Positions 22,634 to 42,343 of a stretch of DNA of 49,916 bases are shown here, piece after piece. Origin of the DNA: an uncultured Treponemataceae bacterium (GTDB taxonomy: Bacteria; Spirochaetota; Spirochaetia; Treponematales; UBA12059); NCBI GenBank assembly GCA_964576835.1, contig CAZNXK010000006.1, forward strand, positions 1 to 49,916, read 5' to 3'. The position numbers and the translations under genes were made by a program. The notes under the pieces are model-generated. The model saw only the letters and a program-made list of their open reading frames with translations. It searched no databases and was not told where the DNA came from. The number at the start of each line of letters is the position of its first letter. Within the stretch, counting starts at the first letter, position 1.

Positions 22634-22692
22634 GGGGTCTCCTGTTGGCCGCGAGTATACGTCACGCCGCGGCGGAGGTAAAGGATGGGTGC

Positions 22693-23478
22693 CTATTCCG
22701 CGGCAACCGACTGGTCCCAGAGCCGCCTGCAATAGGCCAGGCTGTCGGCACCGGACCCGGGGGGCAGCGAAACGACCCCGTCATAGTCCATCCTGCGGAG
22801 GGCATCCATGAACGGTACGTAGTCATAGCGGTCGGACGACCGGGGCGGCACGGAGCTTCCAGGTATCTCGGGATGCTCCAGATGCACATGGCCGATCCGC
22901 TGACCGCAGTCCGTCATCTCGCTCATGCCCGCATGCAGTTCGACAAGGTCCCGCGGGCTCACCAGCACCGCGAGATTCGGCTTGTCAAGCATGGAGAAGC
23001 ACTCCCGGATGTCTTCAAACGAGTTGATGAAATTGGTCCGCCTCGCTCCAAGCGGCTCGAGGCATACATCGATACCGAAACGCTCGGCGATTCCGCAGAG
23101 CATGAACATGAACTGGTAGAAATGCTCCCTTGCCGTCGAGACATCGCCCTCCACCGGCAGAAGCCTCGAGCGACCGTCGCCCCAGACCAGGGTCCTGCAA
23201 CCAAGTTCGGATATCCTGCGCACAGCGGTGCCGAGGTATTCGGTCCAGTAGTACGTATTGAATCCCTGCTCGGTGACCTGCACTCCCTTTGGAAGCGGCG
23301 CCTCGAAGACCTCGAAGGAGAGTCCCGCGGCCGAGAGCCGCTTCCTCTCGGCCGGAAAGTCCGCATCGTCACGTTCCATCACGACGTCGACCGGCAACTG
23401 GACGCCCTCGAAGCCGTGGGCCCTGGTCTCGTCCAGCCCAGCCATGGTCGCAACCCGTACAGCCCATCGTATGCTCAT
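22693..23478 (-). CDS. Sugar phosphate isomerase/epimerase family TIM barrel (xylose isomerase-like), degenerate metal site
   Basis: LVWGDGRSR, CLEPL, HVHL; paralog of 28698..29519. The Asp and the second Glu positions are substituted. Confidence 0.8.
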   Translation of the reverse strand: MSIRWAVRVATMAGLDETRAHGFEGVQLPVDVVMERDDADFPAERKRLSAAGLSFEVFEAPLPKGVQVTEQGFNTYYWTEYLGTAVRRISELGCRTLVWGDGRSRLLPVEGDVSTAREHFYQFMFMLCGIAERFGIDVCLEPLGARRTNFINSFEDIRECFSMLDKPNLAVLVSPRDLVELHAGMSEMTDCGQRIGHVHLEHPEIPGSSVPPRSSDRYDYVPFMDALRRMDYDGVVSLPPGSGADSLAYCRRLWDQSVAAE

Positions 23479-23491
23479 TGAACAGTTCCCT

Positions 23492-23932
23492 TCATGAAGC
23501 CAGCAGATTGACGAGGGCCTCCAGCGCGAGGATGTAGCTCTTCTTCCCGAATCCGCCTATCACCCCGACGCAGACCGCGGCAATCACCGAGGTGTGCCTG
23601 AATTCCTCGCGGGCGTACACGTTGGAGATGAATACCTCGACGCAGGGGACGAGCATCGCGCCGATCGCGCTCCTGAGGGCGTAGCTGTAGTGCGCCAGGG
23701 CTCCGGGGTTGATGATCACCCCCGCGTATTCCCCGGGCGCCCTCTGCAGGCTGTCGATGATGTCGCCCTCGCTGTTGAACTGGAGGCAATCGACCAGAAC
23801 ATCAAGTTCAGCCGCCCTTTTTTCGAGTCCGGCATGGATGTCCTCCAGGGAGCCATCCTTGTATATCGAGACTTTCCTCGTCCCCAGCAGGTTCAGGTTG
23901 GGACCGGAGATGACCAGGAACTTCTTCTTCAT
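23492..23932 (-). CDS. aroQ: Type II 3-dehydroquinate dehydratase paralog with substituted catalytic residues
   Basis: GPNLNLLGTR, QFNSEG, NPGALAHYS, but VEVFISN (His->Phe) and ALRSA (Asp->Ser). Confidence 0.8.
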   Translation of the reverse strand: MKKKFLVISGPNLNLLGTRKVSIYKDGSLEDIHAGLEKRAAELDVLVDCLQFNSEGDIIDSLQRAPGEYAGVIINPGALAHYSYALRSAIGAMLVPCVEVFISNVYAREEFRHTSVIAAVCVGVIGGFGKKSYILALEALVNLLAS

Positions 23933-23960
23933 GTCAGCAGCCCTCCATCCAGTCCGCGAA

Positions 23961-24416
23961 TCACGCCAACCATGGATCGGTCGTCGTTTCCATCAGGGCC
24001 CGGAGACCCAGGACGTAACTCTGCGAGCCAAAGCCGCAGATCTGTCCGACACAGACCGGCGCTATCAGCGAGACGTGCCTGAACGGCTCCCGCTTGTAGA
24101 TGTTCGAGATGTGCACCTCGATGACCGGTATCTTGATGGCGCCGATCGCATCCCGGATGGCGATCGAGTAATGCGTGTAGGCGCCGGCGTTCAGCACGAT
24201 GCCGTCGACGCGGTCGAGGCAGCCATGGATATGGTCGACCAGCGCGCCTTCGGAGTTGGCCTGGAAGAAGTCCACCTGGACGCCGAGCCTGCCCGCCTCC
24301 GCGGCGATATCTCCGTTTATCTGCTCGAGCGTCTTTCCGCCGTATATTCCGATCTCGCGCTTGCCCAGCATGTTCAGGTTGGGGCCGTGGATGATCGCTA
24401 TGCGTCCATATGCCAT
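23961..24416 (-). CDS. aroQ: Type II 3-dehydroquinate dehydratase (canonical)
   Basis: HGPNLNMLGKRE..IYG, QANSEG, NAGAYTHYSIAIRDA, EVHISNIYKREPFRH. AGGAGG RBS. Confidence 0.95.
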   Translation of the reverse strand: MAYGRIAIIHGPNLNMLGKREIGIYGGKTLEQINGDIAAEAGRLGVQVDFFQANSEGALVDHIHGCLDRVDGIVLNAGAYTHYSIAIRDAIGAIKIPVIEVHISNIYKREPFRHVSLIAPVCVGQICGFGSQSYVLGLRALMETTTDPWLA

Positions 24417-24477
24417 GCGTAGCCCTCCTGTCGCTTGAAACCCGGGTAGAGAAATGACTGGTCCGCCGGATCAGCGC

Positions 24478-24507
24478 ATACTACACATAGAAACATTTCA
24501 ATGTCAA
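24478..24507 (-). promoter_or_regulatory. Sigma70-type promoter for the aroQ-aroQ'-isomerase operon
   Basis: Minus strand TTGACA (24507-24502), 18-nt spacer, TAGTAT (24483-24478). Confidence 0.55.
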
Positions 24508-24566
24508 ACGTCCAGCGTCCCGCCCGAGTATGTAAACAGAATGCCGCTCCGGTGTATAGTGTCATC

Positions 24567-24800
24567 ATGAGAGTCAGGATCCGGATGCGGCTCTTCGCAT
24601 CGTTGCAGAAGTGGAGCGGCGGAAAAACCCTCGAGCTGGACCTCGAAGAGCCGGCAACCCTGGGAGCGGCGCTGCACCGCCTCGGCATCCCCGAATGCGA
24701 GGTGGCTATCGTCATCACCAACGGCAACAGAAGCCCGCAGGACGCCCCGCTGCGTGACGGCGACGATATCCAGCTGTTCCCGGCGATCGGTGGGGGCTGA
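24567..24800 (+). CDS. MoaD/ThiS family sulfur-carrier protein (AOR-associated type)
   Basis: RLFASL, NG...L.DGD.I.LFPAIGGG with C-terminal Gly-Gly. Confidence 0.9.
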   Translation: MRVRIRMRLFASLQKWSGGKTLELDLEEPATLGAALHRLGIPECEVAIVITNGNRSPQDAPLRDGDDIQLFPAIGGG

Positions 24801-24816
24801 GACCGACATGCGACAA

Positions 24817-24849
24817 GGCCGTCTGGCCGCGCGCTGCGGTCAGGCGGCC
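24817..24849. terminator. 14-bp GC-rich hairpin between the convergent moaD and SLH-MBL genes
   Basis: GGCCGTCTGGCCGC-GCGCT-GCGGTCAGGCGGCC (two G-U pairs); no U-tract. Confidence 0.5.
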
Positions 24850-24865
24850 CGTGCGGACGGTTCCG

Positions 24866-26971
24866 CTACATCTTCGCTATCATGAAAGCATAGGTGCTCG
24901 TGGTGACGCCGTCAGGCGCGGTCACGACGATGGTGATGATTGAGCCGGCCGTGGCTTTCACCGCCGTCCCGGACCTCGAGGCGGAAGCCTTGCCGTTGAC
25001 GGTGATCGACTTGATCTTCGTCGACATGGCCGTCGGGATTATGGTGATGCCGTCGGTCGCCTTGGGCACCTCGATCACATAGCTGTATGTCCACGGATCG
25101 AACTTGTTCCGCAACGCGTACGACACTGTCTCCATGCCGCCTGCCCAGGCAAACGGCGCCGGATCGGGCTGCCATGAGACCGTCGTTCCCATCAGCCTGC
25201 CGCCCTCGACCTCGAAATTGGACAGTACCGAGTATTTGAGGTAGCCGTCCTTGCCGTTGTAGTTGACCGGACTCGACGTCAGGTACTCAGTGCCGTCGCC
25301 CATCGTGCCGGCCAGCTTGAGGGCGATCCAGTTCGTGCCGTCCTTCCACATGTCGCCGATCATCGTCGTCCTGCTGTTCGGCGCGTCGTTGTTGCCGCGC
25401 AGGGTCGGGGTGCATCCCGCCTCGCCGTTGTCAACAACCTGTTGCAGAGCCGCCTCGAAGAGCCTCAGGTTGGCATCGGACAGCGGCGTCTCGTCATGGC
25501 CGGTGAAGAGCCTGGTCGTCTTGCCGCCTGCCTTCTTGTAGTTCGAATAGGTCTGCTGGGCCAGCGACAGGAGGAGGTCGACCCTGACTCCGGAGACGTT
25601 GACGTTGTCCGCAGAGCCGGCCCTCGTGCAGCCGTAGATGTCGGAGGCGAATATCAGTCCGTTGGCCTTGTCCTGCAGGATGATGTTTCCGTTGGCGTGT
25701 CCCGGAAGCGTGTAGACGTACAGGTCGCAGCCTCCGAGGCTGAACTTGTCACCCTCCTCGACGTTCCTGATCTTGCCCTGCCCGGCGGCGGTCGGGAACA
25801 CCGCGGGGAAGGGGCCGCTCGTGGCTCCGACCGCGGACCATCCGCGCTTGTTCAGGTATACGTCGACTCCGGCCGCAAGGAAGTTTGGTCCCTGCATGTC
25901 GTGATCACCGTGCTCGTGTCCTATGACCAGGAAATTCGGCTTCGTGGCGATGTTCTTGTCGATGTACGCCTTCAGGTTGGCAACGTTCGACGGTGTCTGC
26001 AGCGCGTCGAATACCAGGCCGCGGTCCTGCCCCTCGATGTACCACGCCATCGCGCGGACCGACTCGGAGTCGTTGCATATCCTGTATACCGCCGGACTGG
26101 TCGCGGTCTTCTCCTGGATCAGCAGGTGCTGGAAATCGGCGACAACCGGCCGGTACAGGCGCCAAGTGAAAGTCTGTACCGGGCTGGCGGCCATGCCGTC
26201 CTTCAGCGCGATGGCCTTGTAGACCACGTTCCGTTCGGGTAGCTGAGCGGTCGACAGCATCTCGTTGATGTGGCCCTTCGTGGCGACGGTGTACACCGCG
26301 CTGGCCGAGGTGGGCGTCGATCCGTCGGTGGTGTAATGGATGACCGCGCCGGGAGTCGGGCAGAACAGCTTGACGTAACGCCTCGGCGCACTCGCGTTCT
26401 GCATCGGCACGGCCTGCACCGGCGAAACCATCGAGGAGGTGAGCCTGTCGAACATGGCGGCGGCCTCGGCCGCCCCGAGAGGCGCCGTGGGCTTGAAGGC
26501 CGTCGGCGTCAGGCCGGACATGAAGCCCGAGGCGACCATCGAGTTGACGCCGTCCCTGATCGACGCGTCGATCTTCGACCTGTCCGAGAAGCCGGCCAGC
26601 GCATCCTTGGATGACACCGGTAGCCTGAAGGCCAGCGCAAGGATAGCGGCAGCCTCCTGCCTCGTGACGGCCGCTCCCGGATTGAAGTTGCCGGACGCAT
26701 CGGGACTGATCAGCCCTTGCTCGTACGCCACCTCTATCTGCTTGCCGAACGGATCGGCTGTCCTGACATCCTTGAACTGCTTGAGCGGAGACTTCCAGAT
26801 GTCGTTGTACTCCGTGGGATGTGGCCATTCGAAGTAATCCGATATCCGGGCGACGAACTCGGCCTTCGTGATGGTACCTTCCCCGGTCGGAACCGAAACG
26901 CAGGCGGCCAGCGACAGCGCCAGCGCACATCCGATAAGCAGGCTTATATACCCTATCTGTCTCTTGAACAT
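24866..26971 (-). CDS. Lipoprotein with SLH repeats + Fn3-associated domain + metallo-beta-lactamase-fold hydrolase + cadherin-like beta-sandwich
   Basis: Lipobox LAAC; SLH motifs ITKAEF, FKDV, FNPGAAVTRQEAA, FSDRSKI; IHYTTDGSTPT; MBL motifs GHEHGDHD, PGH, FASD, TGHD; C-terminal VVTAPDGVTTSTY. AGGAGG RBS before ATG 26971. Confidence 0.85.
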   Translation of the reverse strand: MFKRQIGYISLLIGCALALSLAACVSVPTGEGTITKAEFVARISDYFEWPHPTEYNDIWKSPLKQFKDVRTADPFGKQIEVAYEQGLISPDASGNFNPGAAVTRQEAAAILALAFRLPVSSKDALAGFSDRSKIDASIRDGVNSMVASGFMSGLTPTAFKPTAPLGAAEAAAMFDRLTSSMVSPVQAVPMQNASAPRRYVKLFCPTPGAVIHYTTDGSTPTSASAVYTVATKGHINEMLSTAQLPERNVVYKAIALKDGMAASPVQTFTWRLYRPVVADFQHLLIQEKTATSPAVYRICNDSESVRAMAWYIEGQDRGLVFDALQTPSNVANLKAYIDKNIATKPNFLVIGHEHGDHDMQGPNFLAAGVDVYLNKRGWSAVGATSGPFPAVFPTAAGQGKIRNVEEGDKFSLGGCDLYVYTLPGHANGNIILQDKANGLIFASDIYGCTRAGSADNVNVSGVRVDLLLSLAQQTYSNYKKAGGKTTRLFTGHDETPLSDANLRLFEAALQQVVDNGEAGCTPTLRGNNDAPNSRTTMIGDMWKDGTNWIALKLAGTMGDGTEYLTSSPVNYNGKDGYLKYSVLSNFEVEGGRLMGTTVSWQPDPAPFAWAGGMETVSYALRNKFDPWTYSYVIEVPKATDGITIIPTAMSTKIKSITVNGKASASRSGTAVKATAGSIITIVVTAPDGVTTSTYAFMIAKM

Positions 26972-27244
26972 GACGTTTCCTCCTGAGCGAACCTGAGCCA
27001 TGGATTGTCGAGATTCTTTGCGACTCCCGCGGGGAACGGCACTGCGGCCGATCCTCCGGGCATCATGCCTGGAGCGACATCGCGGCACCTCCTGTCCCGG
27101 GAAGCGGCGCGGACATGGATGCCGGATCGCCGGACCTATCCGATATCACTGCGATATATCTGATCGGTATAAAAAATACTTCTATCAACGCAGGAATCAC
27201 CTCACCCTCCCCCTGGCGTATCAGTCCTGATCCCATTCATCCGC

Positions 27245-27658
27245 TCAGTCTTTCGGCCATTCGAGCAACTCGATGAGCCCTATGAACTTGTGCCGGAGGA
27301 AACAAAGCTGGTTTTTCTGGAACACGCCGCCGGTGATCGGCTCGTGGATCGCGTATTCACCGGTGGCCAAGAGTTCATCGACCTTCCTGTGGATATCCTC
27401 CACGTCGTAGCAGACGTGATGAAACGCGATGGCTTCGGTGCGTGCATCCGGCGTTACGGCGGCAAACGACGGCCTGGAAGGATCCGCGACCTGCAGGAGC
27501 TCGATGATCGATTCGCCGAGCCTGACCCGCTGGATCAGCATGTTCTTGGGGACGTGGTGCCTGACGTCATCATGGGCCTTCTCGAAGCCCATCAGAAGGT
27601 AGGCGTCGACAGCCTGCGCGAGATCCATCGTCACGAAGGCCAAGTGGTTGAGTCTCAC
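27245..27658 (-). CDS. VOC family protein (methylmalonyl-CoA epimerase/glyoxalase-like)
   Basis: Metal-ligand pattern LNHLAF, IELLQ, HHVCYDVEDI, LIELLE. Confidence 0.85.
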   Translation of the reverse strand: MRLNHLAFVTMDLAQAVDAYLLMGFEKAHDDVRHHVPKNMLIQRVRLGESIIELLQVADPSRPSFAAVTPDARTEAIAFHHVCYDVEDIHRKVDELLATGEYAIHEPITGGVFQKNQLCFLRHKFIGLIELLEWPKD

Positions 27659-27669
27659 GCGGGGGTTCC

Positions 27670-28701
27670 TCAGTCGTTCGTCAGTATGACCTTGATCTCG
27701 GTCGAATTTCCCGAGGCCAGGTCTTCGAATATCCTCGGGCCATCGGACATGGGCAGAACCGAGGTGACCATCTGCCTGACGTCGAGCTTGCCGTCGATGA
27801 TCATCTGGAGTCCTTCGCGCATCTCGGTCGTGTACATGTAACTGGTCAGCAGCTTGAGCTCCTTGACCACGGCATGCTTATATTCGATCTCCATCTTCGG
27901 CGAGGCCATGCCTACGAGCATCATCGTGCCGCCGTTACGGACTATCTCGATGCCGGTGTTGACGGTCGCGGGAACCCCGGCGGCGTCGAAGACGATGTCG
28001 ACGCCCAGGCCGCCGGTCAGCTTCCTCACCTCGGCCTGTACCTCGCCCTTCGAGTTGATGCCATCGGTGGCTCCGCACTTCTTCGCCATCGCGAGCCTGT
28101 TATCGAGGACGTCGATCGCGATGATCTTCGCGGCGCCGAAGGCCTTGAGGCACATGATGCCCATCAGTCCGATCGGACCCGAGCCGAAGACGGCGACGGT
28201 CTTGCCCTTGATGTCGCCGAGGTGCTTGGTCGCCCGCAGCGATATCGACAGCGGCTCGACCATGGCGCACGCGTTGAACGATACGTGCGCCGGCAGTGGC
28301 ATGATCTTCTCCGCGGGAGCCAGCACGTAATCGGCCATGGCGCCGTTGTAGCTGCCGGCCTTCATCGTCGTCCCGATGATGTAGCGATTGTCGCAGACAT
28401 TGTCGAGGCCGTCCTTGCAGTCCTGGCATTTCCCGCAATACAGGTTGGTCACGACGCCGACCCGGTCGCCGACCTTCATGCCCGTAACACCCTGCCCCAG
28501 AACCGCAATCTCGCCCGAAAACTCGTGCCCCATGATCAGCGGAGCGACGCGCATCGCCGAGCCGCCCTTGTAGCCCGACAGGTCGGATCCGCAGATCGAC
28601 ACCGCACGGACCTTTACCAGGACTTCGCCATTCTTCGGCGCCGGGGTGGCGACTTCCTCATAGCGCAGGTCGCGCGGTCCATGATATACGAGTGCCTTCA
28701 T
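27670..28701 (-). CDS. Zinc-dependent medium-chain (polyol/cyclitol) dehydrogenase
   Basis: ICGSD, GHEFSG, structural Zn CGKCQDC...C, GSGPIG, IDV (NAD-type). Confidence 0.92.
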   Translation of the reverse strand: MKALVYHGPRDLRYEEVATPAPKNGEVLVKVRAVSICGSDLSGYKGGSAMRVAPLIMGHEFSGEIAVLGQGVTGMKVGDRVGVVTNLYCGKCQDCKDGLDNVCDNRYIIGTTMKAGSYNGAMADYVLAPAEKIMPLPAHVSFNACAMVEPLSISLRATKHLGDIKGKTVAVFGSGPIGLMGIMCLKAFGAAKIIAIDVLDNRLAMAKKCGATDGINSKGEVQAEVRKLTGGLGVDIVFDAAGVPATVNTGIEIVRNGGTMMLVGMASPKMEIEYKHAVVKELKLLTSYMYTTEMREGLQMIIDGKLDVRQMVTSVLPMSDGPRIFEDLASGNSTEIKVILTND

Positions 28702-29519
28702 TTTGTTTCTCCTTGTGCCCTGTAGGGCCTGATTCCGTGCGCCTCGAAGAAGCGCAGTCCTTCCTGTATCTCGGACCTGAAATCCTTGAACACGGACGCC
28801 TCGATCGAAATGATTTCCTTGTAGGCCATATTCTTGAGGGCGTCGAGGAACGGCGAGTAGTCGAATCCGTCGTCGACGCGAGGGAAGACCCTCTCGGGGA
28901 AGATGGTCGTCGGGTTGTCCAGGTGGACGTGCTTTATGAACGGTTCGTATTTCGCGATCTCGTCCAGCGGCCGTCCGAGCTCGACCATGTAGCGGTAGTC
29001 GACGAAGGTCTTCAGGTTGGGCCTGCCGTACTTCCTGATGAACTCGACGGCTTCCGGGAGGTTGTTGACGATGTTCGACAGCTTCTTGCCGAGTGGCTCG
29101 ATCAGGACGGTGATGTTGTGTTCCGCCGTTATATCGAGCAGCATCGTGAAGAATTCGTCGAACTTGGCCGCAGCGCCTTCGATATCGCCTTCGACCGGAA
29201 GGCTGCGGGCCTTTCCGTTGCCGAACACGAAATACCGCGCGCCCATCCCGGCCGTCCTGTCGGCGGCCTTGCGCAGGAAATCCCTGTAATACGCGAGGTC
29301 GAACGACGGATCGGAGATCCTCGAGTCAAGCGGTATGGGGTTGTCGAATACCTCGGCGGGTATGCCGCACGAGCGGAGCCTGGCGAGCGCGGTCCTGTAC
29401 TGCGCGTCGTCGAAGCCCATGATCTCCCTGACATGCAGCTCGGCGCAGTCGTAGCCGGCGGCGGCGATGTCGTCGAGATCCTTCGTGAATCCGAAACAGC
29501 TCAGGCGCATTCGAATCAT
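28698..29519 (-). CDS. Sugar phosphate isomerase/epimerase family TIM barrel (D-psicose/tagatose epimerase, Hyi or IolO-like fold)
   Basis: FVFGNGKAR, IEPL, FVDYRY, HVHL, R, ISIEA: metal/catalytic E-D-H-E set retained. Confidence 0.88.
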   Translation of the reverse strand: MIRMRLSCFGFTKDLDDIAAAGYDCAELHVREIMGFDDAQYRTALARLRSCGIPAEVFDNPIPLDSRISDPSFDLAYYRDFLRKAADRTAGMGARYFVFGNGKARSLPVEGDIEGAAAKFDEFFTMLLDITAEHNITVLIEPLGKKLSNIVNNLPEAVEFIRKYGRPNLKTFVDYRYMVELGRPLDEIAKYEPFIKHVHLDNPTTIFPERVFPRVDDGFDYSPFLDALKNMAYKEIISIEASVFKDFRSEIQEGLRFFEAHGIRPYRAQGETK

Positions 29520-29529
29520 GTCGCCCCCG

Positions 29530-30810: not shown

Positions 30811-30819
30811 ATGACTGTC

Positions 30820-31323: not shown

Positions 31324-31354
31324 GTTCGCAGTCCCTCCTTGGATTTCGGCGCGG

Positions 31355-31393
31355 CAGGAAGGAGACGGGGATTGAAGTCCCGCCTCCTTCCTG
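31355..31393 (-). terminator. Intercistronic hairpin after dctP (mRNA stabiliser or partial terminator)
   Basis: Long stem CAGGAAGGAGACGGG...CCCGCCTCCTTCCTG. Confidence 0.6.
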
Positions 31394-31405
31394 TACGGGT
31401 CATTT

Positions 31406-32434: not shown

Positions 32435-32504
32435 TCGAATGCCTCCCAAAATAGGACCATCGACGTTTCTCCCCACAAGGGGAGTTCTCCCTCGAGGGGA
32501 GAGA

Positions 32505-33467
32505 TCAGCTTGGCCAAGCTATCGTGTACAAGTGCTTGCCGCCATTCAACGGACCCTTGAGCAGGGCCTCGATCTCGGCCGGATCCCGCTGGCTCATCAG
32601 CCTGCCCTCGGGAAGCTTTCCGACCGGGAAGCGCTCCATGATGTCGCCGTGGAGCTTTACCAGGTAATTGAGGACGTTCTCGATCGCCTTCGTCGCCTTC
32701 GCCGGATCGGCCAGCGTCGCCTTGCCCAGGACGCCCTCGGGGAAGGTGACGCATTCGATGCCCGTGCCTCCGATGATGCAATGGCCGGGGATAGGGTTGC
32801 CGTAGATGTCGCCGCCGCGATCGACGTGTCCTGGCGGCAGGAATCCCTTGATGCTAGTGTCCTCGGCGTGCTCCTGTTGGCACAGCTCAGGGAACAATGC
32901 CAGCGATATCGACTGCTCCGCTTCGTCCGCGTGCTGGAAGGGATTGTCGAACGGGCCGCCGTGGGCCTTGTCCATCAGGTCCTTCGCCATGACGCGGGGA
33001 AGGTCGACGAACATCACCATCGCCGGCACCTGGTACTTCTTGCCCCACTCCTGGATGGCGGACGGCAGCGCGTATTCCTGCCCGTGCATGCTGATGAAGA
33101 TCTGCTTGCGGAATCCGGTGTTCCAGAATCCCGAGATCATCGCGCGCAGGTGATCCATGAACACGTTGTCGGGGAGCGGCACCGTGCCAGGCTGCCCGAT
33201 GTGGTGGAAGGGATGAGAGCCGTACCACATGGGCATGGCGACGGTGCATCCGGTCTTCTTCGCGACCATCTCGGCGATACGGGTGACGATGAAGGTATCC
33301 TCGCCGTAGGGACCGGCTGCGCCGTGGTTCTCGGTCGAGCCGACCGGGATGATGATCACGTCGTTCTTCTTGAGCCTCTCCTCGACGTCGAACTTCGTCA
33401 TCGTCTGGAAGTAGATCTTGGACGGCTTGTCCATCTGCCCTTCCTGCGGGAATTTCCAATCAGACAT
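32505..33467 (-). CDS. iolN: Creatininase-family hydrolase closely resembling 3-dehydro-scyllo-inosose hydrolase (IolN)
   Basis: IYFQTMT, IIIPVGSTENHG..GEDTF, WYGSHPFHHIG.PGT, GFWNTGFRKQI, HGQE, HADE, PEGVLGKATLA. These match my recollection of Thermotoga IolN; the actual substrate may differ. Confidence 0.8.
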   Translation of the reverse strand: MSDWKFPQEGQMDKPSKIYFQTMTKFDVEERLKKNDVIIIPVGSTENHGAAGPYGEDTFIVTRIAEMVAKKTGCTVAMPMWYGSHPFHHIGQPGTVPLPDNVFMDHLRAMISGFWNTGFRKQIFISMHGQEYALPSAIQEWGKKYQVPAMVMFVDLPRVMAKDLMDKAHGGPFDNPFQHADEAEQSISLALFPELCQQEHAEDTSIKGFLPPGHVDRGGDIYGNPIPGHCIIGGTGIECVTFPEGVLGKATLADPAKATKAIENVLNYLVKLHGDIMERFPVGKLPEGRLMSQRDPAEIEALLKGPLNGGKHLYTIAWPS

Positions 33468-33486
33468 GCTGTTCCTCCCTTTCCGG

Positions 33487-33846
33487 TCAGAGCCTGTGGC
33501 TCTTGAGCTGGGGCGCGTACACCCATACGAACTTGAGTTTCGTCGTCCCGGTGTTGACGATCTGGTGCTTGGCTCCCGGCGGGTTGTACACGCAGATTCC
33601 CGGCCTGAGTTCGATCTCCTCGTCGGCCGTGATGAATTTCCCCTGGCCTTCCAGGAAGAGCATCACTTCCTCCTCGGTCTCGTGGATATGCTCCGGGACC
33701 ATTGAACCAGGCTCGGTCTCGTTGACTCCGAGCGCGAGGTTCTGCGAACCGACCGTCTTCTCGGAAATCAATATCCATGAAGCCCGGGGAGGGGTCTTCC
33801 TCTCGGGCTCGACCTTGTTGATATCGATCACTTTCAATCCTGCCAT
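33487..33846 (-). CDS. Cupin domain protein
   Basis: PEHIHETEEE...LEGQG and PGAKHQIVNTG, a metal-binding cupin. Confidence 0.92.
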   Translation of the reverse strand: MAGLKVIDINKVEPERKTPPRASWILISEKTVGSQNLALGVNETEPGSMVPEHIHETEEEVMLFLEGQGKFITADEEIELRPGICVYNPPGAKHQIVNTGTTKLKFVWVYAPQLKSHRL

Positions 33847-33876
33847 GCTCTTCTCCTCCCAGTAGAAAACGTTCTG

Positions 33877-34626
33877 TCAGCCGATGAAAATTCCGCCGTT
33901 CACATCCATGGTGATTCCGGTCACCCAGTCGGATCGGCTCGATGCAAGGAATATGACCGCGTCCGCGACATCCTCGGGCAGGCCGTCCTTGGGGACCGCA
34001 CGTCCGGCGTTCCAGGTCGCGAACACGTCAGGGGCATACTGCCTGGTCTGGTCGGTGAGGATCGGGCCCGGGCAGATCGCGTTGACGTAGATGTTGTCGG
34101 GACCAAGTTCCCTGGCCAGCACCTTGGTAATCCCGAGCAGTCCGGCTTTCGACGCGGCGTAGTTGACGCCGACTCCGGGCCTGCCGGTCCGCGCGCCGAG
34201 CGACGCGATGTTCACGATCTTCCCGTATTTCTGCTTCTTCATGACCGGTGCCACCGACTTGCAGCACAGGAAGGGACCGGTCAGGTTGACGTTGATCACC
34301 TGCTCGAACAGTTCGAGGGTCATGTTCTCAAGCGTCTCGTGGCGGGATATTCCAGCGTTGTTCACGATCGCGTCGATCCGGCCGAACGTGTCGACCGTCC
34401 TCGCTACGGCGGCCTTCACGTCAGCTTCGTCGGTCACGTTGACCTTGAGCGCCAGGACCCTGGCGCCGCTGGGGTCGAGTTCATTCGCGGCCTTCTCGAC
34501 CGACTCCAGGTTCATGTCCCAGAGTACGGTGAACGCGGCTTCTGCATAGGCTTTTTTCGCGATGGCCAGCCCGAGCCCGAGTCCGGCGCCGGTCACGATC
34601 ACGACCTTGTCCTTCAGTTCCATCAT
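33877..34626 (-). CDS. Short-chain dehydrogenase/reductase (NAD-dependent)
   Basis: TGAGLGLG, WDMN, VNNAG, NIAS, YAASK, ICPG. AGGAG RBS. Confidence 0.93.
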   Translation of the reverse strand: MMELKDKVVIVTGAGLGLGLAIAKKAYAEAAFTVLWDMNLESVEKAANELDPSGARVLALKVNVTDEADVKAAVARTVDTFGRIDAIVNNAGISRHETLENMTLELFEQVINVNLTGPFLCCKSVAPVMKKQKYGKIVNIASLGARTGRPGVGVNYAASKAGLLGITKVLARELGPDNIYVNAICPGPILTDQTRQYAPDVFATWNAGRAVPKDGLPEDVADAVIFLASSRSDWVTGITMDVNGGIFIG

Positions 34627-34643
34627 CGGCTCTCTCCTGTGCT

Positions 34644-36374
34644 CTACAGCTGGTCCGCGGGCACGTAGCCGTCCCACATCGACTTCATCGCGTCCATCGG
34701 GACGTCGAACACGGCGTTGTTCGGTGGCAACGGCTCGTCCGCCATGAACTCGGGAATCGGGAAGAACTCTTCCGATCCGCCCGCCCTGGCGTTGACCTCG
34801 CGCTCGGTCCTGATCACGCCCCATGCCAGCGCGCCCACGTCCTTGACCGACATGTCCCAGCCGTACCTTCCCTTGAGCAGGTTGGCGAACATCTCCGGCT
34901 TCTTGAGGAAGGGCGGACGGACGAAGAGGCAGACGCCGAGCGCGTCGAGCAATGCCGCGCGGATCTGCAGTTTCCTGGAACTCTCTACCTGTCCTTCCGC
35001 TTTCAGCGGGTCGATGGTCTTGAGTGTCTCGAAGGCGTTGCCGGCGGTGTGGTCGGCTCCCATCGGCGACGTTATGTACGTCACGCCGTTTCCCTTGACG
35101 CCCCGAGGGTCATAGCCGGGAATCGCCTGCCCCTTGATCACTGGCACGCGCCGGATTCCGAGAAGCCGTCCGGTTATCTTCGCTCCGTTGCCGAGGATCC
35201 GGCCGAGGTAGGTACCCTGCCCGATCTGCCTGATCAGGTCCTTTGCGCCTTCCGCATCTCCGAACTCGACGATACCCGCCTCCATCGCGACGCCTATCGC
35301 CGCGCCCGTCTCTATGGCGTCGACCCCGACCTGGTTGCACAGGTGGTTCATCTCGGCTATGTCGTCGAGGCTGCCGATGCCGCAATTGGATCCGAGCAGC
35401 GAGATGTTTTCGTACTGTATGGATGCGACGAGCTTCTTGCCTGACTTGTCCGGGAATATGTTGCTGCACTTGATGACGCAGCCCGCGACACAGGCCTGAC
35501 CGGACTTGCCGCCGCGGGACAAGATTTCCTCCCTGACGCGTTCCCCGGCGATGTCGTCGGCCTTCTCGAAGCTGCCGGCGCTGAAGTTCCTCGTGGGCAG
35601 CAGGCCCGAGGAGTTGGCCAGCGCCAGTATTGCCGGCGTTCCGAAGAGGTTCCGGTTCTCGGTCTTCGGATCCGCGAGCAACGACTCGGCCATCCATCTG
35701 GAAGTTTCCTGCAGCAGGGTCTTGTCGAAATACCGTGGGACGTACGCCGAGCCCGAGTCGTCTATCACGATGGCCTTGATTCCCTTGGAACCCATCAAGG
35801 CTCCCAGCCCGCCGCGCGCCGCGTACCGGATCTGCACGTCGTCGTTGTCAGGCGACGCGATTCCCGCCCCGTACATCATCATCTCGGCGGCTGGCCCGAT
35901 GCAGAATATTCCCGCGGACTTGCCGTAGGTTTCCCTGAGGACCGCGACGGTATCGTCGACCAGCAGGCCCTTGAGCCCGGGAGCGCTGACGAGGCTGTAT
36001 CCGTCGGCGCGGATCTCGAGGATGTCGGTGGTCGGCGACGCCGGAGTCTCCTCGAGTATCAGGGCGCGGATGCCGAGCCTGGCGAATTTCTTGCCGGCCC
36101 ATCCGCCGATGTTGCTTTCTTTGACGCCGCCGGTCAGCGGGCTCTTCCCTCCGATGGACATCTGTCCCGACGTCGTCACATTGGTGTCGGCGAGGAGCCC
36201 CGACGCGAAGATCAGCTTGTTGCGACGGCCTGTCGGTTCGCAGTTCGGGGGGACTTCGCGCAGGAGGGCATGCGCGATGAACGACCTGCCGCCCCATCGC
36301 CGCTCCTCCTCGGTCGCCGTCTGCGCGAGTATCCGCCGCGTCCTGGTATCGACCCTGACTATTGTATCCATCAA
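34644..36374 (-). CDS. aor: Aldehyde:ferredoxin oxidoreductase family (W/Mo bis-pterin enzyme)
   Basis: KSPLTGGVKESNIGG, CIGPAAE, AARGGLGALMGSKGIKAI, CVAGCVIKC, GVDAIE, YDPR, GADH, LGVC. Confidence 0.92.
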   Translation of the reverse strand: MMDTIVRVDTRTRRILAQTATEEERRWGGRSFIAHALLREVPPNCEPTGRRNKLIFASGLLADTNVTTSGQMSIGGKSPLTGGVKESNIGGWAGKKFARLGIRALILEETPASPTTDILEIRADGYSLVSAPGLKGLLVDDTVAVLRETYGKSAGIFCIGPAAEMMMYGAGIASPDNDDVQIRYAARGGLGALMGSKGIKAIVIDDSGSAYVPRYFDKTLLQETSRWMAESLLADPKTENRNLFGTPAILALANSSGLLPTRNFSAGSFEKADDIAGERVREEILSRGGKSGQACVAGCVIKCSNIFPDKSGKKLVASIQYENISLLGSNCGIGSLDDIAEMNHLCNQVGVDAIETGAAIGVAMEAGIVEFGDAEGAKDLIRQIGQGTYLGRILGNGAKITGRLLGIRRVPVIKGQAIPGYDPRGVKGNGVTYITSPMGADHTAGNAFETLKTIDPLKAEGQVESSRKLQIRAALLDALGVCLFVRPPFLKKPEMFANLLKGRYGWDMSVKDVGALAWGVIRTEREVNARAGGSEEFFPIPEFMADEPLPPNNAVFDVPMDAMKSMWDGYVPADQL

Positions 36375-36389
36375 CGATTCTCCGCGTCC

Positions 36390-37436
36390 TTAGGAATTGC
36401 CCAGACGGACCGGGCTGCCGAGCCTTGCCAGGATCTCGTCGATGCTCTTGACGACGGCGTCGGTAACGTCGATCCCGAGTCGTTCGCCATCCTTCGCCTT
36501 CTTGATTTCAAGTTGCCCCGGCAGCAGGATCTCGTCGAATCCGGGTTGCCTGCGGAGCGCCTTGATCTGGCCGGTGTATTCGGTGATCAACCGGTCGAAG
36601 GTCTCCTTGCCCACGAAACGTCCGATGTCGATGCAGATGAAGGCCGCCCCGACTCCTGTCTTGCCTTCGAGCTCGTGAAAACTCCTGAGCCCGCGTCCGT
36701 ACGCCGCACCGGAGAGCATCCCCGAGATGATGTCGATCATCATCGCAAGCCCCGAGCCCTTCGGGCCTGCAAGCGGGAGCAGGCAACCCTTCATCGCCTT
36801 CTTCGGATCGGTCGTCGGCTCGCCGCCCTCGTCCAGGGCCCAGCCGAGAGGAATGGGCTGGCCGCTCAGCGACGCCAGCCTGATCTTGCCCCGAGCGACA
36901 ATGCTCGACGACATGTCCAGCACCAGCGGATCGCCCTGCCCGCAGGGGATGGCGATGGACAGCGGGTTCGTGCCGAAGAACGGCTCGGCTGCGCCGAATG
37001 GCGCGACCGACGGATTGCCGTTGGTGGTGATGATGGAGATGACGCCGCGGCGCGCGGCGGAGACCGAGAGGCAACCCAGGGCGCCGATGTTGTTGGTGTT
37101 GCGCAGCGTCACCATGCCGATGCCGAATTCGAGGGCCTTGGCGATCGCGGTGTCCAGGGCGCTGTACGCCGCGACCTGCCCGAGCCCGTCGTTTCCGTCG
37201 AGCATCGCGGTCGCCGCGTCATCCGATACGACCGTGACCCTCGTCGGGAACGTAAGCATTTTCGCCTCGGCACGCTGGGCCACCAGGCGGAGGAGATTGA
37301 TGCCGTGCGTGCTTACGCCGCGCAGGTCGGCCTGCACGAGGGCCATGGCGGCGACCTCGACGTTCCCGCCGCTCTCGCCCAGCCTGGTCAGGATCTCGGC
37401 TGCCACTTCCAGCAGGGTCTTCTCGGCGAATCTCAT
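36390..37436 (-). CDS. Ldh_2 family (malate/L-lactate/ComC/AllD-type) 2-hydroxyacid oxidoreductase
   Basis: ADLRGVSTHG, DGNDGLGQ, GTNPLS, LDMSSS, GPKGSGL, LLPG. Confidence 0.93.
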   Translation of the reverse strand: MRFAEKTLLEVAAEILTRLGESGGNVEVAAMALVQADLRGVSTHGINLLRLVAQRAEAKMLTFPTRVTVVSDDAATAMLDGNDGLGQVAAYSALDTAIAKALEFGIGMVTLRNTNNIGALGCLSVSAARRGVISIITTNGNPSVAPFGAAEPFFGTNPLSIAIPCGQGDPLVLDMSSSIVARGKIRLASLSGQPIPLGWALDEGGEPTTDPKKAMKGCLLPLAGPKGSGLAMMIDIISGMLSGAAYGRGLRSFHELEGKTGVGAAFICIDIGRFVGKETFDRLITEYTGQIKALRRQPGFDEILLPGQLEIKKAKDGERLGIDVTDAVVKSIDEILARLGSPVRLGNS

Positions 37437-37443
37437 GTCGTCC

Positions 37444-38115
37444 TCACTCTTCCACGAGGCCCAGGGATTCGAACACCTTCTCGAGGCTGTTGAGTTCCAC
37501 GCTAGAGACGCCGCTCTCGAGCTGGGCTGCCTTGCCCTCCTCGAACTGGACGCGCTTCAGCGATTTCTCCAGCACGTCGGCGCAATCGGCCGCCCTGACC
37601 ACGACCATGCCGTCACCGTCGCCGAGGATCAGGTCTCCGGGAAAAATCGTCGCCTGTCCGAAGTTGACCGGGTAGTTGACGATGCCGAGGGTCGTCTTTA
37701 CGGTGCCCTTGATGGCGAATCCTCGGCAGAACATCGGGAAGCCCATCTTCGCGATCTCCGCCGAGTCGCGGACGCAGCCGTCGATGGCGAGGCCCGCCAG
37801 ACCGCGGGCCTGCGCTGCCGTTGCCATCATGCCGCCCCAGTAGCCGAATTCGTACGCCCCTCCGACGGTCGCGACGAGGACCGAGCCTGCGGGCGCACGT
37901 TGCAGTGCCTTGTGGAGCATGAGGTTGTCTCCGGACGCGCACTGCACCGTATAGGCTACGCCGCAGATCCTGTCGCCGGGCGCGGCCGGCTTGATGCCGC
38001 AGTCCACGTAGCCCTTGCGGCCGGACGCTTCGTACACGGTGGCGACATCGAGGTTCCTGAACGCCTCGAGAACCGACTTTTCGATCTGCTGGACCGCTTT
38101 CAAGACGTGGATCAT
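37444..38115 (-). CDS. RraA-family 4-hydroxy-4-methyl-2-oxoglutarate / 4-carboxy-4-hydroxy-2-oxoadipate (HMG/CHA) aldolase-like protein
   Basis: LigK-like N-terminus (VATVYEASGRKG), GDNLMLH, G-x20-R-D-x2-E motif (WGG...DGCVRDSAE), PGDLILGDGDG. ATGA overlap with the gntR stop. Confidence 0.88.
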   Translation of the reverse strand: MIHVLKAVQQIEKSVLEAFRNLDVATVYEASGRKGYVDCGIKPAAPGDRICGVAYTVQCASGDNLMLHKALQRAPAGSVLVATVGGAYEFGYWGGMMATAAQARGLAGLAIDGCVRDSAEIAKMGFPMFCRGFAIKGTVKTTLGIVNYPVNFGQATIFPGDLILGDGDGMVVVRAADCADVLEKSLKRVQFEEGKAAQLESGVSSVELNSLEKVFESLGLVEE

Positions 38116-38792
38116 ATTGCCTTCCTGTTGCCGACCATCAACTGGTCTATGCTGATCAGTGATCGCCTGAGGTGATCGCGCACTGCCTTCTCCGCGTCGT
38201 CGGGCTTGCCGTCGATGATCGCCTCGAGAATCCGCTTGTGCTCCTCGCAGGTCTCGTGCAGGCGCTTCGACTCGAAGCGGGAGATGAAATAGATACGGAT
38301 CCTGACGATATGGTCGAGGATCGAACCGTAGTATTCCGACAGGAAGCTGTTGCCCGCCGCGCTCACGATCCGTTCGTGTATCTGGTAGCCGGAAAGCAGC
38401 GATTTCCTGACGCCCTGGTCGTCGACTACCTTGAACGACTCGTGGTTCTCGAGTATTTCCTTGAACAGGGATTTGTCCGGCGTCAGGGCGGCCATGCGCG
38501 CGGCGGCGCATTCGAATATTTCCCTGATCTCGAAGACTTCCCTGATGTGGTCGATGCTGATATTCGATACGAAGCATCCCTTGTTCGGGACGATCACCAC
38601 CTGCCGGTCACGCTCGAGGTGCTGCAGGGCTTCGCGGACGGGCGTCTTGCTAACCTTCAGCTCTTCGCACAGGACCTGTTCGTTCAGGTACTCCTGGGGT
38701 TTCAGTACGTTCTGCACTATCCGGTCCTTGAGGATCTTGTAGACGTACAGCTTCTTGCTTATTTCTTCCCCTGCGCCGATGCTCTGCTGCAT
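38112..38792 (-). CDS. GntR family transcriptional regulator (FCD domain)
   Basis: LNEQVLCEELKVSKTPVREAL, FEIREIFE, AAGN, EEHKRILEAI. RBS before ATG 38792. Confidence 0.93.
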   Translation of the reverse strand: MQQSIGAGEEISKKLYVYKILKDRIVQNVLKPQEYLNEQVLCEELKVSKTPVREALQHLERDRQVVIVPNKGCFVSNISIDHIREVFEIREIFECAAARMAALTPDKSLFKEILENHESFKVVDDQGVRKSLLSGYQIHERIVSAAGNSFLSEYYGSILDHIVRIRIYFISRFESKRLHETCEEHKRILEAIIDGKPDDAEKAVRDHLRRSLISIDQLMVGNRKAI

Positions 38793-38835
38793 TTCTTGTA
38801 CTTCTCCAATCCATTTCGATAGCCAGAAAGATTCC

Positions 38836-38855
38836 GCTACCGATATATCGGTAGC
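38836..38855. promoter_or_regulatory. Perfect 20-bp palindrome GCTACCGATATATCGGTAGC; putative GntR operator just downstream of the operon promoter
   Basis: Exact palindrome. A minus-strand TTGACA (38895-38890)-17 nt-AAGAAT lies just upstream. Confidence 0.72.
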
Positions 38856-38968
38856 ATATCGTGCGTATTCTTTATCCATTTCGGTGATCTGTCAACCTTA
38901 TTTTTCCGAATATAGAGAGTATATTTTATCGATATAATTAGCCTGTCGCGGACGGGCAGCAGCCGGGA

Positions 38969-39012
38969 GCCCGAACCGATATATTGACGATATATCGGTT
39001 CGGGCCTACACT
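38969..39012 (+). promoter_or_regulatory. Promoter TTGACG-N17-TACACT overlapped by a perfect 16-bp inverted repeat containing two CGATATAT boxes
   Basis: GCCCGAACCGATATAT-tgacg-ATATATCGGTTCGGGC (38969-39005); -35 at 38984-38989, -10 at 39007-39012. Confidence 0.72.
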
Positions 39013-39084
39013 GCACGCTCCTGAATACCACGCGGTCCACGAGAAAGGCCCTGTGCACCCTGGTATGACGGGGAAGGAATTGCC

Positions 39085-39486
39085 ATGAAAGCGATAACGG
39101 ATTTCCTGGACGCCAACATCGACGGCTTCCTGGCGACGCTCGAGGACGGGCAACCGAGGGTCAGGCCGTACCAGTACATGCTTGCCGACTCAGGCAGGCT
39201 GTGCTTCAGCACCAACAACGCCAAGGAGGTCTGCAAGCAGCTCAGGGCAAACCCGTCCATGGAGTTCGCCGCCTTGAGCCGCGCGGGCGGCTGGATCAGA
39301 CTGAGGGGAAACGTCAAGTTCGCGGACTCGAAGGAGCTCAAGGACAAGATCCTCGCGAAGAGCGATGTCGTCCGAGGCATCTACAAGACGGCCGACCACC
39401 CCAACTTCGAGGTTTTCTACCTGGACCACGGTTCCGCGCAGATCCTGGAAGCCTCCGGACAGCAGCCGCTTAAACTGGAATTCTGA
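39085..39486 (+). CDS. Pyridoxamine 5'-phosphate oxidase family (split-barrel flavin-binding) protein
   Basis: FLATLEDGQPRVRP, FSTNNAKEVCKQLRANP, WIRLRG. Confidence 0.9.
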   Translation: MKAITDFLDANIDGFLATLEDGQPRVRPYQYMLADSGRLCFSTNNAKEVCKQLRANPSMEFAALSRAGGWIRLRGNVKFADSKELKDKILAKSDVVRGIYKTADHPNFEVFYLDHGSAQILEASGQQPLKLEF

Positions 39487-39507
39487 CCCCGCGACTGGAT
39501 TGCGGGG
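39487..39507. terminator. Hairpin between convergent genes
   Basis: CCCCGCGA-CTGGA-TTGCGGGG directly after the PNPOx-family stop. Confidence 0.45.
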
Positions 39508-39517
39508 CCGGCCGGCA

Positions 39518-42342: not shown

Positions 42343-42343
42343 C

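Follow-up and report, generated by a model that had tools for sequence, protein, structure and literature searches.

An operon of an uncultured spirochete with a proposed role in the oxygen-independent degradation of quinate and related hydroaromatic acids

How might an anaerobe take apart a hydroaromatic acid such as quinate without first making it aromatic? Quinate and shikimate, together with their esters (the chlorogenic acids), rank among the most abundant of the soluble plant acids. Since the 1990s, bacteria have been known that ferment quinate or shikimate without aromatic intermediates (Ilyobacter insuetus, Propionivibrio limicola). The aerobic qui/qsu/qa pathway uses quinate dehydrogenase, dehydroquinase, and dehydroshikimate dehydratase to reach protocatechuate. 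In the full-text literature surveyed, with subscription journals largely outside its scope, the anaerobic degradation of quinate or shikimate was nowhere described at the level of genes, and the terms "didehydroquinate" and "didehydroshikimate" were not found. The question is raised here by a GntR-led gene cluster on contig CAZNXK010000006.1 of an uncultured Treponemataceae bacterium; the entire 49.9-kb contig was analyzed and is called the window below. A first-pass annotation of this DNA had proposed that the cluster degrades quinate and shikimate without oxygen and ends at an aldolase splitting 4-carboxy-4-hydroxy-2-oxoadipate (CHA). On balance, we lean toward reading the operon as one for O2-independent catabolism of hydroaromatic carboxylates, which would proceed through a 3,5-diketone and its hydrolytic opening to pyruvate and oxaloacetate.

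The host genome (3.9 Mb in 365 contigs) is 97% complete. The closest homologues of the window genes lie in metagenome-assembled genomes of Spirochaetota, and groundwater metagenome runs contain DNA near-identical to the window; no RNA run was among the sequence-run matches listed for 29000-38900. We assigned domains by Pfam and NCBIfam profile searches of the window's open reading frames (ORFs). From 38879 to 27245, 13 minus-strand genes follow each other in series with intergenic gaps of -4 to 82 nt, as computed from ORF coordinates. Starts were corrected for RraA (38115), SDR (34626), TIM306 (29519), and DctP (32434). The RraA ORF itself extends to 38577, but we set its start to 38115 because both the domain and an ATG preceded by AGGAAGG begin there. 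The operon, in its own order, and the genes flanking it are as follows.

38112 to 38879, minus strand: GntR/FCD-family regulator, the operon's first gene (PF00392, 57.2 bits; PF07729, 83.2 bits; the true start may be internal)
37444 to 38115, minus strand: RraA-fold class II pyruvate aldolase of the HMG/CHA-aldolase type (PF03737, NF006731)
36390 to 37436, minus strand: Ldh_2-family 2-hydroxyacid dehydrogenase (PF02615, 351.5 bits)
34644 to 36374, minus strand: tungsten-type aldehyde:ferredoxin oxidoreductase, AOR (AFOR_N, 167.5 bits; AFOR_C, 230.9 bits)
33877 to 34626, minus strand: SDR dehydrogenase (PF13561, 208.9 bits)
33487 to 33846, minus strand: small cupin, 119 aa (PF07883, 59.7 bits)
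32505 to 33467, minus strand: creatininase-fold hydrolase, IolN family (PF02633, 159.4 bits; NF041098, 529 bits)
31406 to 32434, minus strand: TRAP protein DctP (PF03480, 265 bits)
30820 to 31323, minus strand: TRAP protein DctQ (PF04290, 104 bits)
29530 to 30810, minus strand: TRAP protein DctM (PF06808, 404 bits)
28698 to 29519, minus strand: xylose-isomerase-like TIM barrel, TIM306 (PF01261, 82.9 bits)
27670 to 28701, minus strand: Zn-dependent polyol-type dehydrogenase, Zn-ADH (PF08240, PF00107)
27245 to 27658, minus strand: small VOC/glyoxalase-fold protein, 137 aa (PF13669, 36.6 bits)
24866 to 27088, minus strand: SLH plus metallo-beta-lactamase-fold (SLH-MBL) lipoprotein (SLH, CHB_HEX_C, Fn3_assoc, Lactamase_B, and Cadherin-like domains)
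24567 (or 24501) to 24800, plus strand: MoaD/ThiS-like beta-grasp protein with the C terminus GGG (PF02597, 41.6 bits)
23961 to 24416, minus strand: aroQ2, canonical type II 3-dehydroquinate dehydratase (TIGR01088, 204 bits)
23492 to 23932, minus strand: aroQ1, type II dehydroquinase-like paralogue (TIGR01088, 175.7 bits)
22693 to 23478, minus strand: second TIM barrel, TIM261 (PF01261, 75.1 bits)
39518 to 40735, minus strand: M24 (creatinase/prolidase-fold) protein 5' of the GntR gene (weak NCBIfam M24 matches only)

The operon genes named in the first-pass annotation were all in place. Its account of the adjacent genes stood for the SLH-MBL lipoprotein, the MoaD-type protein, and the aroQ pair, but the MoaD-like gene is on the plus strand and TIM261 had gone unnamed. 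As that annotation had stated, neither a further shikimate-pathway family nor a LigB-type or other recognized ring dioxygenase was found among the scanned window ORFs (all except four short ORFs of low GC3 and the ORFs 3-1148 and 1138-1923). The 119-aa cupin and the 137-aa VOC protein may, formally, be oxygenases.

In the route that we propose, the TRAP transporter would import quinate (C7H12O6), whose ring would never be aromatized. The SDR, the Zn-ADH, or both would carry out two NAD(P)-linked oxidations of the 3- and 5-hydroxyls to 3,5-didehydroquinate (C7H8O6), and the IolN-subfamily hydrolase would open this ring in a water-driven retro-Claisen reaction to HOOC-CH2-C(OH)(COOH)-CH2-CO-CH2OH (C7H10O7). 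The cupin would turn the hydroxymethyl ketone into a 2-hydroxyaldehyde, AOR would oxidize the aldehyde to the acid C7H10O8 and pass the electrons to ferredoxin, Ldh_2 would convert C7H10O8 to CHA (C7H8O8), and the RraA-type aldolase would split CHA into pyruvate and oxaloacetate. AroQ2 would interconvert dehydroshikimate and dehydroquinate, an entry for shikimate and dehydroshikimate. The formulae and the carbon mapping from quinate to CHA, already given in the first-pass annotation, are correct by arithmetic (C7H12O6 + 2 H2O = C7H8O8 + 8 [H]). Gene content, conservation, family membership, and context are observed; from these we infer the substrates, the order of steps, and the chemistry.

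Is the arrangement more than a local accident? We collected 58 loci with IolN homologues (64 to 96% identity), taking one genome per species. The window proteins were matched to these loci by tblastn, and ORFs left over were grouped into clusters. Counts rest on the tblastn matches rather than on ORF calls because the ORF caller chose antisense ORFs in several high-GC loci (e.g., "unk694"). Loci with at least one of RraA, Ldh_2, AOR, and cupin were called type A, and their core was counted as complete when it held RraA, Ldh_2, the cupin, and either AOR or an aldehyde dehydrogenase (ALDH). There were 41 type A loci, 13 loci of a second layout (type B), and 4 with other or unclear context. The core was complete in 32 of the 41 type A loci and the other nine lie on cut contigs of 2 to 15 kb, so the arrangement is not due to chance. 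Type A loci occur in Spirochaetota, Bacillota (Clostridia, Halanaerobiales, Desulfosporosinus, and Thermovenabulum), Chloroflexota, Planctomycetota, Atribacterota, and Bacteroidota, and GntR homologues lead the cluster in most of them. A randomly drawn complete genome from another family (G126, locus L075) carried the same operon together with a divergent aroQ2-aroQ1-TIM261 group.

Type B loci are all Lachnospiraceae-like (Faecalicatena, Blautia, Hespellia, and Robinsoniella; e.g., L029, L030, L037-L039, L041-L044, L054, L066, and L070). Their operon consists of GntR, an HMGL-like lyase, IolN, two Zn-dehydrogenases, a TIM306 homologue, an OYE+Pyr_redox_2 flavoprotein, a type I dehydroquinase, an MFS transporter, and a distant TRAP system, with the HMGL-like lyase in place of the whole lower branch. 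Judged by gene content, type B would seem to be another hydroaromatic route, shorter than the first, in gut strains that are in culture. The HMG/CHA aldolase and HMGL-like lyase families both cleave next to tertiary carbinols, and two alternative end enzymes of this kind fit C1 of quinate.

The lower branch of the window begins, read backward, with the aldolase. It matches PF03737 with 148.4 bits and passes the cut-off of NF006731 (192.1 bits against 179), but it does not reach that of the stricter TIGR02798 (180.7 against 304.5). Its alignment with the Pseudomonas HMG/CHA aldolase of PDB 3NOJ covers the full length (E = 6.8e-43); GVRDT in 3NOJ reads CVRDS in the window protein, with the Arg-Asp pair kept. 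We take Arg123 and Asp124 of 3NOJ to be the catalytic arginine and the metal-binding aspartate. The lower pathway of protocatechuate 4,5-cleavage and gallate degradation (LigK/GalC/ProA, 3NOJ) shares this last enzyme family and the same proposed products. However, none of its LigAB/GalA dioxygenase, LigC, LigI, or LigJ was found among the scanned window ORFs, and the window route, unlike that pathway, would reach CHA without O2, through hydrolysis and three dehydrogenations.

Next to RraA in every type A locus lies Ldh_2, which falls below every NCBIfam equivalog cut-off (the best is sulfolactate dehydrogenase, 256 against 500); the SDR, the cupin, and the VOC protein likewise reached no specific equivalog. 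For AOR, the nearest solved tungsten enzymes are PDB 9MQX and 1AOR (E of about 1e-57). Its Cys295, Cys299, Cys303, and Cys482 and a DALGVC stretch (DxxGxC motif) are present; the spacing is Cx3Cx3C, as against the usual Cx2Cx3C of the cluster cysteines of such enzymes. In L033 and L045, a PF00171 aldehyde dehydrogenase occupies the operon position of AOR; in L019, L052, and L067, such an enzyme is encoded at another place in the locus, and in L022 it coexists with AOR. This displacement at the same position supports the aldehyde-oxidation step of the first-pass annotation, and the step very probably leads from an aldehyde to an acid. The MoaD/ThiS-like protein, with homologues of 31 to 53% identity in six spirochete loci, is perhaps a helper for the pterin cofactor of AOR. 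The minus-strand ORF at 24504-24809 had been considered as the MoaD gene; it matches neither Pfam nor NCBIfam profiles, tblastn found no counterpart of it in the 58 loci, and it is the plus-strand frame that is ThiS-like.

The first-pass annotation had left the isomerase that feeds AOR open among a TIM barrel, the cupin, and the VOC protein. In type A loci, the cupin is without exception the gene immediately upstream of IolN; it is missing from all 13 type B loci and covaries with AOR, Ldh_2, and RraA, which the TIM barrel and the VOC protein do not. TIM306, present in type B, is missing from many type A loci that are complete (L025, L053, L056, and L064). These distributions favor the cupin over TIM306 as the ketol isomerase, which it likely is, and TIM306 would belong to the upper pathway. 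The cupin's PDB matches are weak and include sugar-phosphate and mannose-6-phosphate isomerases. A VOC orthologue was found in only 3 of the 41 type A loci; the protein is presumably accessory.

The ring-opening step depends on the hydrolase, and here a neutral cyclitol (myo- or scyllo-inositol, or quercitol) has to be weighed as the substrate. It would be processed by Thermotoga-type IolM and IolN with a different lower branch, and aroQ would be unrelated or would act on inosose-like ketones. The hydrolase passes the NCBI equivalog for the inositol enzyme IolN, NF041098, over the entire profile (1-307 of 307; 529 bits against 245). IolN converts 3-dehydro-scyllo-inosose to 5-keto-L-gluconate. 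It has homologues in 928 clusters at E<=1e-20, and apart from "creatininase family protein," the NCBI function names among those listed are all 3-dehydro-scyllo-inosose hydrolase. The Zn-ADH resembles IolM, TIM306 shares the fold of TM0416-type epimerases, and Gfo/Idh/MocA dehydrogenases (the IolG family) occur in seven type A loci. A deoxy-inositol would, on paper, also give a 3-deoxy-2-oxo acid.

The same profiles bring out differences. The Zn-ADH scores 208.5 bits against the IolM cut-off of 450, TIM306 scores 39 against 300 for IolO, and the window has no Gfo/Idh/MocA gene. Among 401 genomes sampled evenly across the phylum, 4 passed NF041098: G126 was one of these, and two others had only about 300 bits and 36 to 38% identity to the window hydrolase. 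One of the latter served as our inositol-type control (L076; genome G135, 392-4441): its IolN (303 bits, 36% identical) lies beside IolG (474 bits, above 355), IolO (349, above 300), and a ribokinase-like gene, and RraA, AOR, Ldh_2, the cupin, and aroQ were not found there. The window-type subfamily scores about 480 to 530 bits on NF041098, above that copy, and was never met here alongside IolG or IolO equivalogs. Because of the IolG/IolO company and low identity of the L076-type protein, NF041098 seems to cover two deep subfamilies, and the model may thus span two functions. "IolN-like," as the first-pass annotation put it, therefore holds for the family, but the window enzyme belongs to a subfamily separate from the IolN that accompanies IolG and IolO. 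That the window enzyme hydrolyzes a cyclic 1,3-diketone is a prediction from its family.

The Thermotoga maritima inositol operon TM0411-TM0416 encodes IolG, IolM, IolN, and IolO (Rodionova et al. 2013, as excerpted via PMC5931981), and the layout of L076 agrees with it. In this excerpted account, two dehydrogenations lead to a cyclic 1,3-diketone that a creatininase-fold hydrolase opens to a linear keto acid, and the route shares three folds with the window (Zn-polyol dehydrogenase, IolN family, and ketose-epimerase-like TIM barrel). The window differs in its separate hydrolase subfamily, its lack of IolG, and its acid-type importers, and its cupin, AOR, Ldh_2, RraA aldolase, and dehydroquinases have no counterpart in the T. 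maritima route as excerpted. No dehydratase able to give a 3-deoxy-2-oxo acid from an inositol was found in the cluster; quinate, with CH2 already at C2 and C6, would need none. Taken together with the acid-type transporters and the recurrence of two unrelated dehydroquinase families as extra copies (both described below), these differences make a neutral cyclitol an unlikely substrate for the window operon.

Upstream of the hydrolase, every variant of the cluster has two or three dehydrogenases, as expected if a 1,3-diol is oxidized to a 1,3-diketone. SDR orthologues were found in 23 of the 41 type A loci and in none of the 13 type B loci, and Zn-ADH orthologues in 17 of 41 and 11 of 13, respectively. 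A tree of IolN separates a clade with the SDR and an orthologous TRAP system from one with a pair of Zn-dehydrogenases and TIM306; parts of both sets are present in the window and its closest relatives. Both dehydrogenases that the first-pass annotation had placed in a single upper pathway are present, but judging from their distribution, SDR plus TRAP and Zn-ADH plus TIM barrel behave as alternative upper modules that would have merged in the window. The Zn-ADH matches ketose reductase, sorbitol dehydrogenase, and threonine dehydrogenase in the PDB.

Transporters among the variant loci were TRAP, HAAT-type ABC (Peripla_BP_6, BPD_transp_2, and BCA_ABC_TP_C), GntP, and MFS systems. All linked transporters are of the acid type, and a carboxylate substrate is therefore indicated. 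DctP has a signal peptide, and its nearest solved solute-binding proteins are 4P9K and 4NQ8 (E of about 1e-55). Their identity to DctP is moderate and they are listed without ligands, and no ligand was inferred from them.

A carboxylate could also be an acyclic sugar acid (a keto-aldonate or uronate), with the creatininase-fold enzyme acting as an amidohydrolase or in a lactonase-like manner. The solved TRAP relatives, their ligand unstated, would allow this, and the SDR matches the gluconate 5-dehydrogenase and KduD models, below their cut-offs. Sugar-acid operons commonly contain Ldh_2, SDR, and Zn-polyol dehydrogenases and barrels that resemble ketose epimerases. However, a sugar acid would leave unexplained the association with dehydroquinase and AroE, the full-length IolN match, the aldehyde oxidation, and a CHA-type aldolase without a dehydratase. 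We regard it as very improbable.

The two TIM barrels (AlphaFold2 models with pLDDT of 93.2 for TIM306 and 82.3 for TIM261) are about 35% identical to each other. The top PDB folds for TIM306 are D-tagatose, psicose, and L-ribulose 3-epimerases, YcjR, UlaE, and the T. maritima L-ketose-3-epimerase, and the fold matches of TIM261 are likewise ketose-3-epimerase-like. From these models, both barrels look like ketose 3-epimerases, which would act via an enediolate next to a carbonyl. We also considered them as dehydroshikimate dehydratases (AsbF/QuiC). The epimerase matches do not support that assignment; TIM261 has no PDB sequence match, and TIM306 matches AsbF with an E of 1.1e-6 over just 84 residues.

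One link between the operon and quinate is the company of dehydroquinases. Within the fetched DNA, a dehydroquinase gene was found at 13 of the 41 type A loci and 12 of the 13 type B loci, and also at the truncated locus L057. The type II enzyme AroQ occurs in two spirochete clades and at L028, L062, and L064 (Desulfosporosinus is among the carriers). AroD, the type I enzyme, which is not homologous to AroQ, occurs in Lachnospiraceae and at the planctomycete locus L052. An AroE-like gene follows AroD in L038 and L070, and the AroD ORF of L052 runs into an AroE-like N terminus. A co-occurrence of the cluster with aroQ or aroE, which the first-pass annotation had suggested looking for, is thus borne out. 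We estimate that, with one or two dehydroquinase genes per 3 to 5 Mb, about 1% of genomes would by chance have one at a distance of up to 20 kb from a given gene.

Are these genes simply the biosynthetic copies? In the host genome, the two window aroQ genes are the only PF01220 matches; an AroD-AroE fusion lies on contig C29, and the genes for DAHP synthase and dehydroquinate (DHQ) synthase lie side by side on C16. The window aroQ genes thus appear to be additional to a separate AroD-AroE fusion. All five type I genomes examined have two AroD genes; a separate AroD is also present in each of G049 and G050, as is a second AroQ in G047. By these gene counts, the dehydroquinases at the loci are probably mostly additional copies.

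The same dehydroquinase link would fit a reverse route, a DAHP-independent synthesis of dehydroquinate from pyruvate and oxaloacetate, and the reactions of the aldolase, Ldh_2, and AOR are reversible in principle. We set this reading aside as scarcely credible because the genome holds DAHP synthase, DHQ synthase, and AroD-AroE elsewhere. A GntR repressor with an importer is moreover a catabolic layout, and by established chemistry the hydrolysis of the diketone is strongly downhill.

The aroQ pair itself turned out to be uneven. AroQ2 is canonical (TIGR01088, 204 bits against 169.85), with an IEVHISN motif holding the catalytic histidine. AroQ1 also passes TIGR01088 (175.7 against 169.85) but reads VEVFISN where three solved enzymes have EVHxSN, and its LGTRK replaces the lid-loop Glu of the canonical LGxRE with Lys. 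The first-pass annotation's pair of dehydroquinases is therefore one canonical enzyme and one that lacks the catalytic histidine. Copies of the aroQ1 type have Phe at the His position in 10 loci and Thr in L021. Among the nearest 120 aroQ1 clusters (at least 77% identity), the His was absent from all 120 (110 Phe, 5 Tyr, 3 Met, 1 Leu, and 1 Ser), and the Lys was present in 117. This subfamily was seen at the window and at L016, L019, L021, L022, L056-L058, L063, L068, and L075, and its members are named 3-dehydroquinate dehydratase in databases. In type II dehydroquinases, the histidine missing here protonates the leaving hydroxyl. From its motif, aroQ1 could enolize a 3-keto acid yet not dehydrate it. 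It always lies between the canonical aroQ2 and TIM261, and TIM261 always follows aroQ1 in spirochetes; the full aroQ2-aroQ1-TIM261 triple is present in L019, L056, L058, L068, and L075.

An aromatic or near-aromatic acid at the level of gallate or 3,5-didehydroshikimate could enter here, through an AroQ-type hydration to the same diketone, with quinate as a side entry. It would account for a triple that includes a His-less AroQ, which cannot be a normal dehydratase. An Amidohydro_2 gene adjoining the Desulfosporosinus cluster L062, of the LigJ hydratase family, and the position of CHA in both the aerobic gallate and protocatechuate pathways would be in keeping with it. However, the idea is purely chemical speculation, the two or three dehydrogenases that each variant carries upstream of the hydrolase would be needless, and AroQ is absent from many loci. 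We consider this entry improbable. The Amidohydro_2 gene (L062:14557-15438), which we take to be of the LigJ/LigI family, is a side observation in its own right.

Quinate as the substrate has its own difficulties. Besides the IolN equivalog and the Gfo/Idh/MocA genes of seven type A loci, several observations weigh against it. The window has neither an AroE-type nor a PQQ quinate dehydrogenase, and the route leaves the roles of TIM306, TIM261, the VOC protein, and the His-less aroQ1 unexplained. Roughly half of the type A loci lack a neighboring dehydroquinase, among them 10 with full 10-kb flanks. Two of the cases counted are weak: the aroQ of L064 adjoins a prephenate dehydrogenase gene, and the genome of L028 (G046) has that single dehydroquinase only. 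Because related loci share kinship, the independent associations number about 5 to 7 rather than 25. The quinate route of the first-pass annotation is thus backed by the context association, but the loci without a dehydroquinase nearby stand against it, and it remains our inference.

With hydroaromatic acids as the preferred substrates, how does the operon compare with other known routes? The aerobic quinate/shikimate pathway (see also PMC7442255 and PMC12610400) has the same presumed substrates and a catabolic dehydroquinase copy; the window differs in that a dehydroshikimate dehydratase is unsupported and in that its route would have no aromatic intermediate and no oxygenase. The anaerobic phloroglucinol pathway of Clostridium scatologenes consists of PGR, DPGC, TfD, and TAL (PMC10470551, in part). 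It too uses, under strictly anaerobic conditions, a metal-dependent retro-Claisen C-C hydrolase on a cyclic 1,3-diketone, followed by a dehydrogenase and a lyase, according to the same excerpt. However, its diketone comes from reduction of an aromatic ring, whereas that of the window would come from oxidation of a cyclitol acid, and the products differ. We also considered homology between the hydrolases and rejected it because DPGC belongs to the "cyclase" family and not to the creatininase fold (PMC10470551, same excerpt).

A wider reading, which we put forward tentatively and hold to be rather doubtful, is a modular anaerobic "hydroaromatic" pathway that spans phyla and is labeled in databases as inositol catabolism. 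It would have two interchangeable upper modules, one hydrolase subfamily, and two lower branches that are likewise interchangeable, and the His-less aroQ1 with TIM261 would provide a new enolizing or hydrating activity that widens the range to dehydroshikimate or gallate-level compounds. With the same reserve, environmental anaerobes would use the cupin-AOR/ALDH-Ldh_2-RraA branch, and gut Lachnospiraceae a single HMGL-like lyase, accompanied by AroD and a reductase of the OYE type.

Several neighbors of the clusters recur. Copies of the cell-surface SLH-MBL protein, 65 to 69% identical, adjoin the cluster in Spirochaetota (L014 and L020) and in one Clostridia locus (L025), and an LSLAAC lipobox-like motif is visible in the window protein. 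Genes for large alpha/beta-hydrolase esterases lie by the cluster in L016, L020, L025, and L046 (Esterase_PHB, 37.9 bits, in L020). Speculatively, the lipoprotein and the esterases might free quinate from esters such as chlorogenic acids. An Asp_Glu_race-family gene is paired with a gene of 209 to 220 aa of no Pfam family in L020, L021, and L028. The M24 gene has orthologues in 5 of the 41 type A loci and reached no specific family; its membership of the cluster is doubtful. A promoter and terminator scan of 22000-40000 was uninformative, with 5 and 7 sites, respectively, where 4.9 and 11.0 would be expected.

The outer genes of the window (NUDIX, Band 7, ABC exporters, M24, Rrf2, ferredoxin-like, hybrid-cluster, and two ankyrin-repeat proteins) look functionally unrelated to the cluster. 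At 40726-44250 on the plus strand, an Rrf2 regulator, a 340-aa protein with a 4Fe-4S ferredoxin domain, and a hybrid-cluster protein (Prismane, 576 bits) stand in a row, a typical anaerobe unit for nitrosative and oxidative stress that fits an oxygen-sensitive lifestyle. The two large ankyrin-repeat proteins lie close together (44376-46529, plus strand, 717 aa; 47421-49604, plus strand, 727 aa; Ank_2, 172 and 213 bits), and such a pair is unusual in a free-living bacterium. Two minus-strand ORFs have no Pfam match, one at E<=0.01 (2176-4140, 654 aa, GC3 of 0.79) and one at E<=0.001 (17690-19387, 565 aa, GC3 of 0.87).

The novelty of the proposed route is that known kinds of enzymes are newly joined, an IolM/IolN-type ring opening being connected to a LigK-type aldolase via a tungsten AOR. 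Only 5 of 92 clades of tungsten AOR have a physiological role according to PMC13328260, a classification of tungsten enzymes, the main text of which makes no mention of inositol, aldolase, TRAP, shikimate, or "Spirochaet." If the route is true, one such clade would gain a physiological role, and the name of a large protein group, the 928 clusters of hydrolase homologues, would be corrected. It would also expose a conserved dehydroquinase-like subfamily without the catalytic histidine. Finally, the genes would serve as markers for the anaerobic flow of quinate and shikimate carbon in groundwater, sediments, digesters, and the gut.

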